The notes beneath the pieces are model-generated. The model worked only from the letters and a program-made list of their open reading frames with translations, was not told the DNA's origin and did no database searches. A stretch of 45,989 nucleotides of DNA. Source: Deltaproteobacteria bacterium. Its GTDB lineage: Bacteria > Desulfobacterota > UBA8473. Below, piece after piece: positions 10,919 through 45,989 of this stretch. Positions within the stretch are counted from its first letter, which is position 1, and every line of letters starts with the position of its first letter. The DNA is taken from assembly GCA_030643245.1 (NCBI GenBank), contig DAOWME010000001.1, forward strand, positions 1 to 45,989, read 5' to 3'. A program made the position numbers and the translations under genes.

Positions 10919-11083
10919 TTAGGGACGAGGCCGAAATAACTTCCTCAAGTTGGCGCTCAGATTTAGGTCAGATTTTTTCGATCTGAAAATACAAAACCAC
11001 AGGAATAGTCTTTCCTATTTCGAGGATTTTGTGTTTGAAGATCGGGCAAAGATGGCCTGAAGATAAGAAACTTCGTGGGGAAC
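10919..11083 (+). repeat. Intergenic hairpin repeat (MITE/ERIC-like), copy 1, right end degenerate
   Basis: ttagggacgaggccgaaataacttcctcaagttggcgctcagatttaggtcag... matches the other copies up to gatggcctgaagat, then diverges. Confidence 0.85.
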
Positions 11084-11122
11084 ACATAGGGGAACACAGA
11101 AGGATAATACAGGGCATTTGAC

Positions 11123-11167
11123 ATAGAAACAGCAGATTAGTCTCTCTCTCTAACCTGCTGTTTCTAT
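11123..11167 (-). terminator. Strong hairpin downstream of tRNA-Pro (possible terminator, no clear U-tract)
   Basis: atagaaacagcag (11123-11135) pairs with ctgctgtttctat (11155-11167). The stem extends with G-U pairs to ~18 bp around a (tc)n loop. Confidence 0.35.
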
Positions 11168-11175
11168 TTACTTTA

Positions 11176-11252
11176 TGGTCGGGACGACTGGATTTGAACC
11201 AGCGACCCCCTGAACCCCATTCAGGTGCGCTACCAGGCTGCGCCACGTCCCG
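11176..11252 (-). tRNA. tRNA-Pro (anticodon GGG)
   Basis: 77-nt cloverleaf read by eye: CGGGACG acceptor, GCGC D-stem, CCTGA/ATGGGGT/TCAGG anticodon arm, GCTGG-TTCAAAT-CCAGT T-arm, encoded CCA. Confidence 0.9.
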
Positions 11253-11268
11253 ATAAGATTGTCAAGAT

Positions 11269-11652
11269 TTACTCCAGAATGTCTCTTATTACCTTCAACT
11301 CGTTCTTTATGTCATCCAACAGTTCCCTATATCCCTCTCCAGAAAGAGTAAATTTTGCCTCTCTATCCTCCTGGGAATTGGACTTCCTGAGCTTCTTCTT
11401 GGCCCCAGCTATGGTAAATTTCTCATTGTAAAGCAGGTTTTTTATCTCTAATATTGATTCCAGGTCTTTTCGTATGTAAAGTCTCTGCCTGGACTTGGTG
11501 CGAGAAGGCTTGACCAGGTTAAATTCGGACTCCCAATACCTCAAGACGTATGGCTCTACACCAACAATCTCGCTTACTTCCCCTATCTTGAAATATAGTT
11601 TATCAGGTATGCCTAAACCCCTTTTGTCTGCCCCTTGCTCTTTATCTTTCAT
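11269..11652 (-). CDS. MerR-family transcriptional regulator
   Basis: From the internal ATG at 11652 (MKDKEQG..). [34 protein letters not shown] is a MerR HTH. It occupies the usual position after ihfA in this conserved block. Confidence 0.8.
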
Positions 11653-11829
11653 TTTATTTCTTTGAACTGTAAAAGTCAATGTCAATAAGACGGCGGCAGC
11701 AATTCTAATTAGTTTCCATCCAGTAATGTCACTTTTTCGCAACCTCCTGCGTGAGCCTGCGGGTTTGTTTGTGCAGCGTACGCGTCTTAACAGAACAGGC
11801 AACGAAAAAATATGTCGTTAATGAAGCGG

Positions 11830-12016
11830 TTAGGGTCTGTCATGGAATAAGTGTTGCATATGGGCGCTCAGATTTAGGTCAGATTTGTACGATCCGAAAA
11901 TGCAATACCGGAGGAATAGTTGAACCTATTTCGAGGATTTTGTGTTTGAGGATCGTGCAAAGATGGCCTGAAGATGAGATGCACAGATGTGATACTTATT
12001 CCATGACAGACCCTAA
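11830..12016 (+). repeat. Intergenic hairpin repeat, copy 2 (variant termini)
   Basis: The core matches the family. The terminal arms ttagggtctgtcatggaataagt / acttattccatgacagaccctaa are a perfect 23-bp inverted repeat that differs in sequence from other copies. Confidence 0.9.
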
Positions 12017-12097
12017 GCCACAATCAGAATTACCCACCAGAATCTACAGTGATCTTACCCACTCCCCATTAATGCAACGTACTATGATATGAGGATC

Positions 12098-43153: not shown

Positions 43154-43367
43154 GGTGACACCGATGTGGGTAGAACAACGGTTTACTGAGCTCTGCAAAC
43201 AAGATCCGGGGAAAGACGTGTTAGTCCAAAGTCATAATGCGGGGTAATATGTGCACAAACGGCGGGATATACGTGCATATGGAATAATAGATTTTCAGAA
43301 AAAGAATTTTGGGGTCCTCTTGGGTCCATAGAAGTGCTACCAGTATGGCTGTTTGATCAGTAGGCGT

Positions 43368-43408
43368 AAGGCACAGGGTTTAAGGTAAAAGACCTTTAGC
43401 CCTGAGCC
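43368..43408. repeat. Hairpin of the GGCATAGGG..AAGG repeat family
   Basis: aaggcacagggtttaagg / cctttagccctgagcc with a 7-nt loop. A half-site, agggcatagtg, occurs at 43481. Confidence 0.4.
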
Positions 43409-43540
43409 ATTACATAACACCTGGATATGACAATATTCCGGGACTCATTACTACCCCAAAAACAATTTCTTAAAGGGTAAAGGGCATAGTGTTGCAGGGA
43501 CGGTTCCATAGTCCGTGATAGCCGTATGGAGATGTCTAAT

Positions 43541-43562
43541 GGGGTAGTCGTGAGACTACCCC
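43541..43562 (-). terminator. Hairpin just downstream of the mutase operon (terminator-like, no U-tract)
   Basis: ggggtagtc-gtga-gactacccc, a 9-bp stem, 14 nt after the stop at 43576. Confidence 0.3.
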
Positions 43563-43575
43563 TTCTTATCCTATT

Positions 43576-43977
43576 CTAAGATGAAAGACCTGAAACATAG
43601 TCAACAGCATCACTTGGTGCAGAACCAGGCCCAAATACTTTTTTTATACCCATGTTCAGGAGCTGAGGTATATCCCCCGATGGTATGACCCCCCCCATTA
43701 TGAGCGGCGCATCTATCTTCCGTTCATTGAACGATTCCAACACAGTAGAAGCCACGAAGAGGTGCTGCCCCATTGAGCAGGTGATGCCCACAACATCCGC
43801 ATCCTCCTCCTCAGCTACCTTGGCCAATTCCTTGGGATCACTGAAGTAAGTGAAAACAACCTCAATACCCGCATTTCTAAAACTGCTCATCACAGATAAA
43901 AGTCCCCGGTCATGTCCGTCGAGGGAAAAACGTGCCATTAGGGCCTTCACCTTTTCCCTGTTTTGATTTTCAACCAT
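43576..43977 (-). CDS. Cobalamin (B12)-binding small subunit of an acyl-CoA mutase
   Basis: From the ATG at 43977 (GGGAGG SD). LDGHDRGLLSVMSSFRNAGIEVV...GITCSMGQH...L carries the DxHxxG B12-binding motif. Confidence 0.85.
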   Translation of the reverse strand: MVENQNREKVKALMARFSLDGHDRGLLSVMSSFRNAGIEVVFTYFSDPKELAKVAEEEDADVVGITCSMGQHLFVASTVLESFNERKIDAPLIMGGVIPSGDIPQLLNMGIKKVFGPGSAPSDAVDYVSGLSS

Positions 43978-43987
43978 GGTTTCCTCC

Positions 43988-45688
43988 CTATGTAGAATAT
44001 ATCCTTCCTCCACTCACTTCAACTATCGCCTCCATCATTTCGCCCAAGGTGCATTTGGCCTTGGCTGCCTCAATGAGTTTAGGCATGAGTATTCCCGCTT
44101 TTTCCACAGTATCATAACCGGCCATAGCTTCCTTTATCCTATCGAGTGAATCCTTGACCTTCGTATTATCCCGATTGGCCCGCCACTTTTCCATCTTCTT
44201 TACGACCTCGGCCTCGATCTCAGGCTGATATCCTGTAAAGGCAGGGACCACTTCCTCTTCCTCTGTTTTGAATTTGTTCAAACCTACGACGACCCTTTCA
44301 CCACTGTCAACCTCCTGTCGCCATTTTATGCTCTGCTTCTCCAAGAGCTGGCGTAACCACTCATTCTTTATGCATTGGAAGTAACCTCCCTTGCTCTCTA
44401 TCTCACTCATCACCTTCTTTGCCTCTTCTTCCACCTTGTCCGTAAGCCATTCCAGATAATAAGAACCCCCCAAAGGATCGGTTACATGGGGCACACCTGT
44501 CTCGTTAAGGACTATCTGGTTTATGCGTATTGCTGTACGAACCGCCTCTTCTGAAGGCAGTCCGATAGCCTCGTCGTAAGAATTGGTGTGCATGGACTGT
44601 ACACCGCCCAGGACACAGGCCAAAACCTGCAGGGTAGACCTTGCTATGTTGTTCAAGGGCTGCTGAGAGGTGAGGGAAGAGCCGGCAGTATGAACATGTA
44701 TCCTGTACTGAAGGGACTTCGGGTCTTTACATCCAAACCTCTCCTTCATAATCTTGGCCCACAACCTCCTCCATGCCCTAAGCTTTGCCACTTCCTCAAA
44801 GAAGTCCATCCCCAGATGGACCTGAGAGCTGAACCTCGAAACAAATTCATCGGGTTGTAGTCCGGCCTTTATGCCTCCTTCAACGAGATCAACGGCCTTC
44901 GAAAGAACGATCCCCAGCTCCTGGGCCGGCGTAGCGTTCATCTCTCCCAACACGTAACCACAAAGGTTTGTGTGGTTCCAACTCTTTATGTTTCTGCAAC
45001 TGTATTTTATTAACTCAATCTCTAGTTTGTATTGTGTATCAGGGACAGGAGATGGCAGGTTCGTGGTCAAGCACCGGTTCCCCAATCCATTTTGGCTTTG
45101 GCCGGCAAGCTCTCCCGGCTTATGCCCTCTGCCCTCAGCATAAGCAACATACATGGCAAGGAACGGAAGACACGTGAACCTGATATTGTCGGCCACCCGT
45201 GTCTTGGGAAGATCGTAGTCCCTCAGAAGGACATCGATGTCACCGAGCGTACTTATATTGACACCCCCCAAACCTATCATTCCGCGTGATCTGGGGTCGT
45301 CAGGATCAAAACCGCAGTGGGTAGGCGTATCCACTGCGAAGAGAACGGCCGCCTGCTTTCCATACCCTTTCATCCCTTGTCTTATCAGGTATTTGGTGCG
45401 CTCCTTAGTCTCTTCACCTGTGCCGTAACCGTGGAGTTGCTGAATCATCCAAGGCATATATTGATAGCCAAGCGCCCTGTTTCCCCTCGAATAGGGAAAT
45501 GCTCCGGGCATTTCCGGCTCTGAACCCTCTATGTCCTCCGGCGTATACACATACTTGAGGGGTATCCCGGATTCTGAGTTGTATTGAGGCGAACCAAACT
45601 TCAGCTTCTTTTCATAGACCTCCTTCACCTCCTTCTCCCAGTCCTTCATCATCTCATTCACTTTATCAAGGGTCTTTTTAGAAAACAT
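43988..45688 (-). CDS. Methylmalonyl-CoA mutase-family large (substrate-binding) subunit, divergent
   Basis: 566 aa. PGAFPYSRG, TIM-barrel mutase pattern, SMHTNSYDEAIGLPSEEA. The substrate-region motif differs from canonical MCM (see findings). Confidence 0.85.
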   Translation of the reverse strand: MFSKKTLDKVNEMMKDWEKEVKEVYEKKLKFGSPQYNSESGIPLKYVYTPEDIEGSEPEMPGAFPYSRGNRALGYQYMPWMIQQLHGYGTGEETKERTKYLIRQGMKGYGKQAAVLFAVDTPTHCGFDPDDPRSRGMIGLGGVNISTLGDIDVLLRDYDLPKTRVADNIRFTCLPFLAMYVAYAEGRGHKPGELAGQSQNGLGNRCLTTNLPSPVPDTQYKLEIELIKYSCRNIKSWNHTNLCGYVLGEMNATPAQELGIVLSKAVDLVEGGIKAGLQPDEFVSRFSSQVHLGMDFFEEVAKLRAWRRLWAKIMKERFGCKDPKSLQYRIHVHTAGSSLTSQQPLNNIARSTLQVLACVLGGVQSMHTNSYDEAIGLPSEEAVRTAIRINQIVLNETGVPHVTDPLGGSYYLEWLTDKVEEEAKKVMSEIESKGGYFQCIKNEWLRQLLEKQSIKWRQEVDSGERVVVGLNKFKTEEEEVVPAFTGYQPEIEAEVVKKMEKWRANRDNTKVKDSLDRIKEAMAGYDTVEKAGILMPKLIEAAKAKCTLGEMMEAIVEVSGGRIYST

Positions 45689-45846
45689 AACTTTACCTCC
45701 CCGCGAATAATTTCATTTGATCCTCCATAGCTAAATCCACCGCTCCAAGATTGAAGGTCATTAAGAATAAACCAAGGGTGGAATACTCCCGTAGTCTTAA
45801 GCACATATAACCTAACAGCTATTAGAGAATAAATCAAATAGAAAAG

Positions 45847-45989
45847 TAAGGGACGAGGCTGAAATAACTTCCCCATTTGTGCATCTCATCTTCAGGCCAT
45901 CTTTGACCGATCTTCAAGCACAAAATCCTCGAAATAGGTCGGACTATTCCTGCGGTTTTGCGCTTTCAGATCGAACAAATCTAACCTAA
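45847..45989 (-). repeat. Intergenic hairpin repeat, copy 7 (inverted orientation, cut by the window end)
   Basis: taagggacgaggctgaaataacttcccc... is near-identical to copy 5 but lacks the 26-nt insertion. Confidence 0.85.

Follow-up and report, generated by a model that had tools for sequence, protein, structure and literature searches.

A very abundant MITE family with ISAzo13-type termini in a Desulfobacterota genome

We analyzed a repeat family found in a 45,989-nucleotide stretch of DNA (hereafter the window; contig DAOWME010000001.1) belonging to a MAG of the phylum Desulfobacterota. The repeats very probably represent a MITE with termini of the ISAzo13 family that has spread to ~450 mostly intergenic loci, moved in trans by an ISAzo13-family transposase; its hairpin would most likely aid transposition and not the host. 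The first-pass annotation had offered a MITE as one of two readings, and this reading is borne out: the element has inverted repeats, duplicates 3 bp (TWA) of its target, occurs in hundreds of copies, is missing from exact empty sites in a sister genome and has termini matching those of full-length ISAzo13-family insertion sequences. The family thus shows the features expected of MITEs: a non-coding element below ~500 bp with terminal inverted repeats and a duplication of fixed length, dispersed in many copies, with orthologous sites that are filled in one genome and empty in another. Repeats of this sort are ordinary in bacteria, yet this one is very abundant here.

Copies in the window and structure of the element

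An nhmmer model based on the window copies was used to locate the family in the window (Table 1). The search recovered exactly the seven loci that had been described from the sequence, and their coordinates agreed overall, except that copy 1 ends at ~11068 and not at 11083, its right arm being gone beyond model position 150. All seven lie between long ORFs or tRNAs, as expected from the earlier description of the copies as strictly intergenic, and the ORFs overlapping copies are spurious. Copy 2 carries the family core between different ISAzo13-type arms (GGGTCTGTCATGGAATAAGTG...), an arm type with three full copies genome-wide.

Table 1. Copies of the MITE in the window, with their match or type, flanking duplications and neighboring genes.
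Copy	Coordinates	Strand	Match or type	Flanks	Neighboring genes
1	10919..11068	+	nhmmer model positions 1-150, 159 bits; left terminal inverted repeat and core present	left target-site duplication TTA	tRNA gene (11179-11252, -)
2	11830..12016	+	'arm-swap' subfamily	TTA and TAA	HU/IHF-like gene upstream
3	15916..16126 (nhmmer match from 15917)	+	205-bp variant with 24-nt insert	TAA/TAA duplication	rplT/pheS spacer of the thrS-infC-rpmI-rplT-pheST cluster
4	22207..22248	+	solo left-end fragment: target-site duplication, terminal inverted repeat and 17 nt; nhmmer positions 1-42; repeat families D5 and I12		
5	29874..30084	-	205-bp variant	TAA/TAA duplication on the + strand	begins immediately past the hflX stop codon
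6	39901..40090	+	4-nt internal insertion	TTA/TTA duplication	trmO-like gene and start of hdrA/mvhD-like gene
7	45847..45989	-	nhmmer positions 45-187; cut by the contig end		

The left-end fragment (copy 4, reported as 43 nt) adjoins a FecR-domain gene. At copy 7, the assembly break falls within the repeat.

The element is 181 bp long, or 205 bp where it carries a 24-nt insert (GCCTGTCCTCGACCCCGATCGGGG), and contains no ORF. The insert marks a subfamily of ~24 copies and is present in copies 3 and 5; that these two copies share an insertion had been recognized before, with its size given as 26 nt. The median identity of copies to the 181-nt consensus was 94%. The terminal inverted repeats span 23-26 bp (GGGACGRGGCCGAAATAACTTCC, inverted at the other end), and a ~26-bp terminal repeat (GGGACGRGGCCGAAATAACTTCCTCA) was found at both ends of the MITE. 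The inverted repeats had been described as ~23 bp long and running from ttaggg to ccctaa; their presence is confirmed, but the outermost TTA/TAA belongs to a 3-bp target-site duplication. The repeat itself begins with GGGRCG and covers ~26 bp.

The insertion site is TWA (TTA or TAA, rarely CTA), and it is these 3 bp that are duplicated. The 3-nt flanks were identical in 116 of 164 copies (TTA/TTA in 72, TAA/TAA in 40 and CTA/CTA in 3), compared with identity over 4 nt in 2 copies and over 2 nt in 20 (chi-square ~33 from the counts of identical flanks). In a quarter of the copies the flanks are unequal, with TTA on one side and TAA on the other, which counts against the explanation favored here. 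Haplotypes of the left and right ends agreed in 89 of 164 copies, where 27 would be expected.

Abundance and evidence of transposition

Across the 2.8-Mb assembly, a total of 447 non-overlapping loci were identified on 232 contigs, 185 of them full-length, accounting for 2.3% of the sequence. This genome-wide count corresponds to one copy per 6.3 kb, close to the one per 6.5 kb estimated from the window. About 90% of the loci lie outside ORFs, compared with a coding density of 82%, and the two strands are equally represented (222 plus and 225 minus). Since a quarter of all contig ends (151 of 590) fall inside a copy, the family accounts for a large part of the fragmentation of this MAG. The copy number is ~450-500 here and ~50 in the sister species, and this roughly tenfold gap is the mark of a burst specific to the lineage of this seep sulfate reducer. 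Such a pattern is commonly associated with small population size or relaxed selection.

Two of the window copies have exact empty sites in the congeneric genome G001, with a single TAA at the position of copy 3 and a single CAA at that of copy 5, demonstrating that the element did transpose. At the site of copy 2, both G001 and G007 (contig C2) lack ~30 bp in addition to the element, and this empty site is therefore imprecise. For copy 6, the left flank matches G001 at 99% up to the junction, after which a Family-2 repeat follows. One copy was found inserted at a TAA within the repeat of another copy. Thirteen internally deleted minis keep both terminal repeats, most of their deletions being symmetric about the hairpin tip, and internally deleted derivatives of 46-96 bp at separate loci still bear target duplications. 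These mini-derivatives, together with the occurrence of the same core between different ISAzo13-type arms in the sister subfamily, suggest that only the termini may be needed for mobility.

The nearest-neighbor identity between copies peaks at 98.9%, with no identical pair. As there is also no matching transposase in this MAG or its closest relatives, current activity is doubtful, and the family is probably quiescent now.

Conservation of the rod-like hairpin

The whole element is an imperfect palindrome. As had been proposed for the window copies, the consensus folds into a single long rod-like hairpin, with a free energy of -110 kcal/mol under RNA parameters and -52 kcal/mol under DNA parameters. 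All 164 copies fold better on the same strand (-99.8 vs -71.1 kcal/mol, with ~10 vs 1.6 G·U pairs), and on this strand the consensus contains 8 G·U pairs and lacks A·C mismatches; three tandem G·A/A·G loops also lie on it, at intervals of roughly one helical turn. Among 21 copies from ~10 MAGs, compensatory changes were present in 34 of 60 pairs, whereas shuffled alignments gave a mean of 15.4, none of 500 shuffles reached 34, and slid controls gave 10-15. Structure-preserving substitutions thus exceed chance, answering a question that the first-pass annotation had raised; such covariation is, however, equally expected for a palindromic MITE.

Across MAGs, G·T occurs in 41 pair columns and A·C in 20, and this strand asymmetry makes a single-strand role conceivable. 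Rare variants, which presumably arose after insertion, are symmetric (G·T 105 vs A·C 91, p=0.35), indicating that foldability of the one strand is not preserved in resting copies. In the propagating lineages compensatory changes preserve the hairpin, with its G·U/G·T wobbles and tandem G·A loops all on one strand across ~10 MAGs; resting copies decay neutrally. Most likely, transposition would be helped when one strand folds up by itself or when a cruciform joins the two ends, and the hairpin would not serve the host. A copy transcribed together with its neighbors, such as the one in the rplT-pheS spacer, would plausibly give the mRNA a long double-stranded RNA hairpin. It is rather unlikely that the family is more than a passive MITE in the sense that the rod is selected on one strand, with its single-stranded form (DNA during transposition, or RNA) having a function in the life cycle of the element or having been recruited by these syntrophic sulfate reducers.

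We also considered whether the family acts, or has come to act, as a functional structured RNA of the host, such as an RNase III-processed hairpin that governs operon polarity or the stability of mRNAs, or the precursor of a small RNA; the hairpin would then be conserved for that role. The common folding strand of all 164 copies, its G·U pairs and tandem G·A/A·G loops without A·C mismatches, the excess of G·T columns across MAGs with strong covariation, and the location of copies in transcribed spacers such as rplT-pheS are all compatible with this idea. However, no orientation bias relative to genes was found genome-wide (65 co-directional vs 59 opposite copies in tandem gene contexts; 222:225 overall), and no sigma-70-like promoter or terminator was found within the element. 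A search of Rfam at the gathering threshold returned only two tRNAs, and at E<1 only chance matches to miRNA hairpins far below the cut-off. Moreover, sister species lack copies at the same sites with no visible consequence, and minis missing most of the rod still spread. Given that orientation is random, that rare variants decay symmetrically and that neither a promoter nor an Rfam match was found, a role as host RNA is unsupported and in our view quite improbable; the alternative reading of the repeats as a structured-RNA family, proposed in the first-pass annotation, is neither needed nor supported.

Relationship to ISAzo13 insertion sequences

The preferred reading of the family as a MITE mobilized by an ISAzo13-family transposase draws on insertion sequences found elsewhere. 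A metagenome scan identified ~1.33-kb full-length ISAzo13-family elements at six loci (L087-L092), whose ORF matched NF033519 with 413 bits (cut-off 200) and PF07592 with 360 bits. Their terminal repeats (GGAACG[CG]GGCCGAAATAACTTCCCGA) are identical to the MITE repeat at 23 of 26 positions, although the search pattern itself demanded some of the match in the right repeat; it did not constrain the left repeat, the duplications or the transposase identity. TTA/TTA or TAA/TAA duplications flank the elements at L087-L090. These insertion sequences lie on GC-rich metagenome contigs, and they have only the repeat, and no internal sequence, in common with the MITE. In genomes of Desulfobacterota (G235 and others), ISAzo13 copies of ~1290 bp likewise show TTA/TAA duplications, and their repeats (GGR-N8-[GT]AAATAAC-TT) are in the same register as the MITE repeat. 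We infer that the MITE would have been moved in trans by a DDE transposase of the ISAzo13 family binding its 23-26-bp repeats. To our knowledge, the transposition mechanism of ISAzo13 is uncharacterized.

A cognate transposase with matching termini, which the first-pass annotation had suggested looking for, was not found in this MAG, while the metagenome elements provided the near-identical repeats. PF07592 was absent from this MAG and from the congeneric G001; because the MAG is 85% complete, this absence is not proof. The genome G002 contains only a degraded fragment of an ISAzo13 transposase with differing ends, and no intact one was found in this bacterial family. PF07592 was searched in the MAG itself and its relatives, in 401 genomes of the phylum and in nine element-bearing MAGs; these searches yielded many ISAzo13 elements, none of which has the exact ends of the MITE. 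One candidate partner, an ISAzo13 element in a 'Methanolliviera' MAG (L077/L086), was rejected: it lies on a contig of 41.7% GC unrelated to this MAG, and its repeat resembles the copy-2 arm type at only 18 of 25 positions. None of the 54 solo ends in the MAG adjoins a transposase; they comprise truncated copies and mini-derivatives, copies into which a second repeat family has intruded, and composite repeats such as C19:14732 and C126:2023.

Mobilization by another TWA-targeting transposase, of the IS5/ISL2 group or a Harbinger-like DDE_Tnp_4, would account for the lack of an ISAzo13 transposase in this genome, and some IS5-group and PIF/Harbinger elements also make 3-bp TNA/TWA duplications. 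Nevertheless, this MAG, G001 and G002 gave no match to PF01609 (IS5) above the cut-off and none to PF13359 (Harbinger-like), and the MITE repeat agrees with those of bona fide ISAzo13 elements both in its identity and in the common GGR-N8-KAAATAAC register. We thus regard another mover as very improbable, and IS5 and Harbinger-like transposases were discarded as candidates on account of their absence from the genome.

An origin of the repeat as an artefact of assembly or binning, or as a contaminant common to several MAGs, is scarcely conceivable: many copies do sit at contig ends and the element also occurs in archaeal MAG records, but 185 full-length copies are set in unique flanks and bear their own target duplications, sites occupied in one genome are empty at the orthologous position in another, and mis-binning explains the archaeal records. 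One 'Methanolliviera' contig is 99.97-100% identical to contigs C167 and C150 of this MAG, and cross-domain transfer to archaea is rejected in this case. For 'Promethearchaeota', whose contigs with the element encode proteins ~65% identical to those of this MAG, such transfer is unlikely. The 'archaeal' records with the element are DNA of this bacterium, and the MITE can serve as a marker for mis-binned contigs.

Comparison with known mobile elements

The MITE resembles ISAzo13 elements (NF033519, PF07592) in its terminal repeat, the register of that repeat and the 3-bp TTA/TAA duplication, whereas it differs from them in having no transposase gene, a length of 181 bp compared with ~1.3 kb, an unrelated interior and no cognate insertion sequence in the same genome. 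REP/BIME and IS200/IS605-type palindromic elements, which are short palindromes or carry subterminal hairpins and have neither terminal inverted repeats nor a target duplication, are ruled out by the clear inverted repeats and the 3-bp duplication. A hairpin retained by compensatory changes is a feature in common with bcr1 of the Bacillus cereus group, a MITE-like repeat of ~155 bp that was reported to keep an RNA-type hairpin in this way and to be transcribed; host phylum, termini and target site are different.

Correia elements (CREE) of Neisseria and ERIC/IRU elements of enterobacteria are likewise short and non-coding, occur between genes in many copies and have terminal inverted repeats; when transcribed, they form long hairpins. 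The MITE described here differs from both in its termini, in the lack of a promoter-like site and in its parent insertion-sequence family, and its duplication is a 3-bp TWA, compared with TA in Correia. Because the ends and the duplication differ, it belongs to neither the Correia nor the ERIC family. For these two families, effects on host mRNAs through RNase III or RNase E have been documented (PMC10969869).

Among MITEs of a related phylum, Chunjie of Geobacter uraniireducens is comparable in size and location: it is 178-235 bp long, intergenic, also found inside an operon without disrupting it, and present in many partial copies (PMC10969869). Its operon copy parallels copy 3 in the rplT-pheS cluster. 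Chunjie has ~38 full and 57 partial copies (PMC10969869), compared with 185 full-length copies among 447 loci here. ISAzo13 goes unmentioned in a 2024 review of prokaryotic MITEs.

A documented ISAzo13-type MITE provides a natural dataset of hundreds of copies, with subfamilies, mini-derivatives and an arm swap, that can be used to study which segments of a MITE its mobility requires and what causes the hairpin to be kept on one strand.

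Copy number and distribution of the MITE family

Three approaches, namely a repeat search, alignment with MAFFT and an nhmmer model, recovered to within a few bases all seven loci that the first-pass annotation had reported in the window. We then applied the nhmmer model to the whole genome to which the window, the whole of contig C288, belongs (G000, a 2.8-Mb MAG of 295 contigs, 85% complete, 47% GC). As a result, a total of 447 non-overlapping MITE loci were identified, among which 185 were full-length, 149 abutted a contig end and 120 were internal partial copies. They account for 64.9 kb, or 2.3%, of the assembly. 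Because 151 of the 590 contig ends lie inside a MITE copy, the family is a main cause of fragmentation of this assembly. Full copies were mostly 185-187 nt including flanks, while a subfamily of ~24 copies, with window copies 3 and 5 as members, reaches 208-211 nt because of a 24-nt insert. The congeneric sister genome G001 contained ~50 candidate copies compared with ~500 in G000; the expansion is therefore mostly lineage-specific.

Repeat copies and associated features (genes were placed by greedy calling of long ORFs, without a gene finder)
Feature	Position	Strand	Remark
MITE copy 1	window 10919-11068		
MITE copy 2	window 11830-12016		arm-swap type
MITE copy 3	window 15916-16126		205-bp variant
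MITE copy 4	window 22207-22248		
MITE copy 5	window 29874-30084	-	205-bp variant
MITE copy 6	window 39901-40090		
MITE copy 7	window 45847-45989	-	
thrS-infC-rpmI-rplT-pheS-pheT-HU/IHF-like cluster, canonical	window 12098-19426	-	one MITE between rplT and pheS, another after the HU/IHF-like gene
Two adjacent paralogous genes	window 24463-25888	-	73-79% DNA identity over ~350 bp (repeat families D2, D7)
Family 2 repeat	window 29530-29727, 11697-11781		second dispersed repeat, ~190 bp, bounded by …CACTAG
Third short repeat	G000 C19:14976-15171		~190 bp, adjoins a MITE-type end; about 10 other contigs

When one genome of each species was scanned, the repeat was located in seep and vent MAGs of Desulfobacterales type (EthSRB1, AUK125/140, CSMAG_2456/2959, Grevelingen and MAG241) and also in two archaeal MAG records. 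The 21-kb contig CABGHG010000014.1 of 'Ca. Methanolliviera sp. GoM_oil' (loci L028/L032) matches C167 and C150 of G000 at 99.97-100% identity and joins the two across a repeat. We therefore rejected it as archaeal DNA and regard it as a mis-binned bacterial contig; the match suggests that G000 and this MAG share an oil-seep sample from the Gulf of Mexico, or stem from similar ones. Contigs assigned to 'Promethearchaeota' encode proteins ~65% identical to those of G000. On these grounds a spread of the repeat across phyla is not accepted for either of the two archaeal records.

Element ends and target-site duplication

The first-pass annotation had described the ends as terminal inverted repeats starting ttaggg…/…ccctaa. 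In the 164 full G000 copies with two anchored ends, the trinucleotides flanking GGGRCG…CGYCCC were TTA/TTA in 72, TAA/TAA in 40, CTA/CTA in 3 and mixed TTA/TAA in 38, a left-right association with a chi-square of ~33. Flank identity extended over exactly 3 nt, with agreement over 3 nt in 116 of the 164 copies but over 4 nt in only 2, and the outer 3 bp are therefore a TWA target-site duplication, followed by a ~26-bp terminal inverted repeat. The duplication (TAA/TTA) coincides with the stop codon of a neighbouring ORF in 10 of the 164 copies (C163:1947, C245:1693, C77:7113 and seven others), where insertion regenerated the stop; stop-side distances of ≤5 nt were found in 25/135 cases in G000.

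Relatives were searched with the joined flanks of four window copies. In G001, the copy 3 site in the rplT-pheS spacer is uninterrupted with a single TAA (…GCTGC-TAA-GCCACC…), and the copy 5 site, just after the hflX stop, reads …GAATC-CAA-TCAAAA…; each is an exact empty site. Copy 2 is likewise missing from its site in G001, but the empty site is imprecise, lacking ~30 further bases. At the copy 6 site (G001:C138:20307-20782), a left flank of 99% identity leads directly into a Family 2 repeat, so two different elements use the same spacer. In addition, main-type copies were found inserted at TAA inside a repeat of the copy 2 arm type.

A contig of G007, a genome placed in another genus, matches the window ihfA-merR region at 92% identity (G007:C2:4061-4839, L066). 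Its copy 2 site is nearly base-for-base the same as in G001, and the contig may belong to a G001-like organism and have been mis-binned.

Internal deletions have given rise to 13 derivatives of 46-130 bp that retain both repeats and, in most cases, the duplications. Several, of ~74 bp, represent one deletion type at different loci, and the deleted segments lie mostly symmetrically around the hairpin tip, the pattern that deletion across a hairpin in DNA would produce. A sister subfamily (copy 2 and two other full copies) combines the same core with different ISAzo13-type arms. Together, the derivatives and this arm-swap subfamily point to the termini as the functional part.

Two further repeats occur in G000. 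Family 2 forms a hairpin (-59 kcal/mol), yielded 138 BLAST HSPs on 105 G000 contigs (median identity 95%), occurs many times in G001 and G007, and in places interrupts copies of the main MITE. Copies of the third repeat lie on G000 contigs C105, C226, C130, C119, C132, C128, C47, C4 and C251.

Relationship to ISAzo13 transposases

In the ISAzo13 register, the MITE repeat reads GGGACGAGGCC-GAAATAAC-TT. The transposase model PF07592 matched 24 of 401 genomes of the phylum; it had no match in G000 or G001, and only a degraded fragment in the related genome G002. Multi-copy ISAzo13 insertion sequences of ~1290 bp, compared across phylum genomes, are flanked by TTA/TTA or TAA/TAA, and their repeats (GGR-N8-[GT]AAATAAC-TT) share the register of the MITE repeat. 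We also scanned metagenome contigs for the codons of the conserved Trp-Asn-Tyr at the transposase C terminus, with a right end of MITE type within the next 20-50 nt. All six matches were ~1.33-kb elements with GGAACG[CG]GGCCGAAATAACTTCCCGA at both ends, and their repeats are identical to the MITE repeat at 23 of 26 positions, the right end being partly required by the search pattern. Duplications of TTA/TTA or TAA/TAA were present in the four matches with readable flanks on both sides, and the ORF reached 413 bits against NF033519, the ISAzo13 family transposase model with a cut-off of 200 bits, and 360 bits against PF07592. Similarity to the MITE ends after the repeat. Rival TWA-targeting transposase families were absent from G000, G001 and G002. 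These shared repeats and duplications, the transposase identity and the absence of rivals make the assignment to the ISAzo13 family well supported.

The cognate transposase with matching ends that the first-pass annotation had proposed to look for thus has near-matching counterparts on metagenome contigs, but the actual driver, for which a resident ISAzo13 copy with GGGACG…GAAATAACTTCC ends would be the candidate, was not found in the 85%-complete G000. Every G000 copy differs from every other, nearest neighbours sharing a median of 97.2% and at most 98.9% identity, and the family may therefore now be inactive.

Structure and strand bias of the hairpin

The predicted long rod-like hairpin was borne out, as the 181-nt consensus folds end to end at -110 kcal/mol under RNA and -52 kcal/mol under DNA parameters. 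Among pair cells of the G000 copies, 97.3% were paired, a count that overstates independent events because copies within a genome share ancestry. The haplotypes of the left and the right end agreed in 89 of 164 copies, where 27 would be expected and 5000 permutations reached at most 43. For 21 copies from ~10 MAGs, RNAalifold predicted 60 pairs, of which 34 showed compensatory double changes; shuffled alignments gave a mean of 15.4 ± 2.4 and reached 34 in 0 of 500 cases, and slid controls gave 10-15. Covariation thus exceeds chance, and the rod is maintained, not merely inherited.

The modelled strand was the more stable as RNA in 164/164 copies (-99.8 versus -71.1 kcal/mol). The consensus rod contains eight G·U pairs and three loops of tandem G·A/A·G but lacks A·C mismatches, and pair columns across MAGs showed G·T in 41 versus A·C in 20. 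Rare variants, which are probably post-insertion, were symmetric (G·T 105 versus A·C 91). Pairing is probably under selection in the lineages that go on transposing, not at resting sites. Orientation relative to flanking genes was random (65:59 in tandem contexts, 222:225 overall, by greedy long-ORF calls), and the MITE matched no Rfam family and contained neither a promoter nor a terminator consensus. A host RNA function of the hairpin is not supported, though one strand might still act in single-stranded form within the element's own life cycle.

Comparison with known MITEs

The first-pass annotation had left the choice between a MITE/ERIC/Correia-like element and a family of structured RNAs. 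By all defining features (PMC10969869), the element is a typical MITE of bacteria, one that either derives from the ISAzo13 family or parasitizes it, and it is neither a Correia nor an ERIC element. What stands out is its abundance and its strand-biased, compensated rod.
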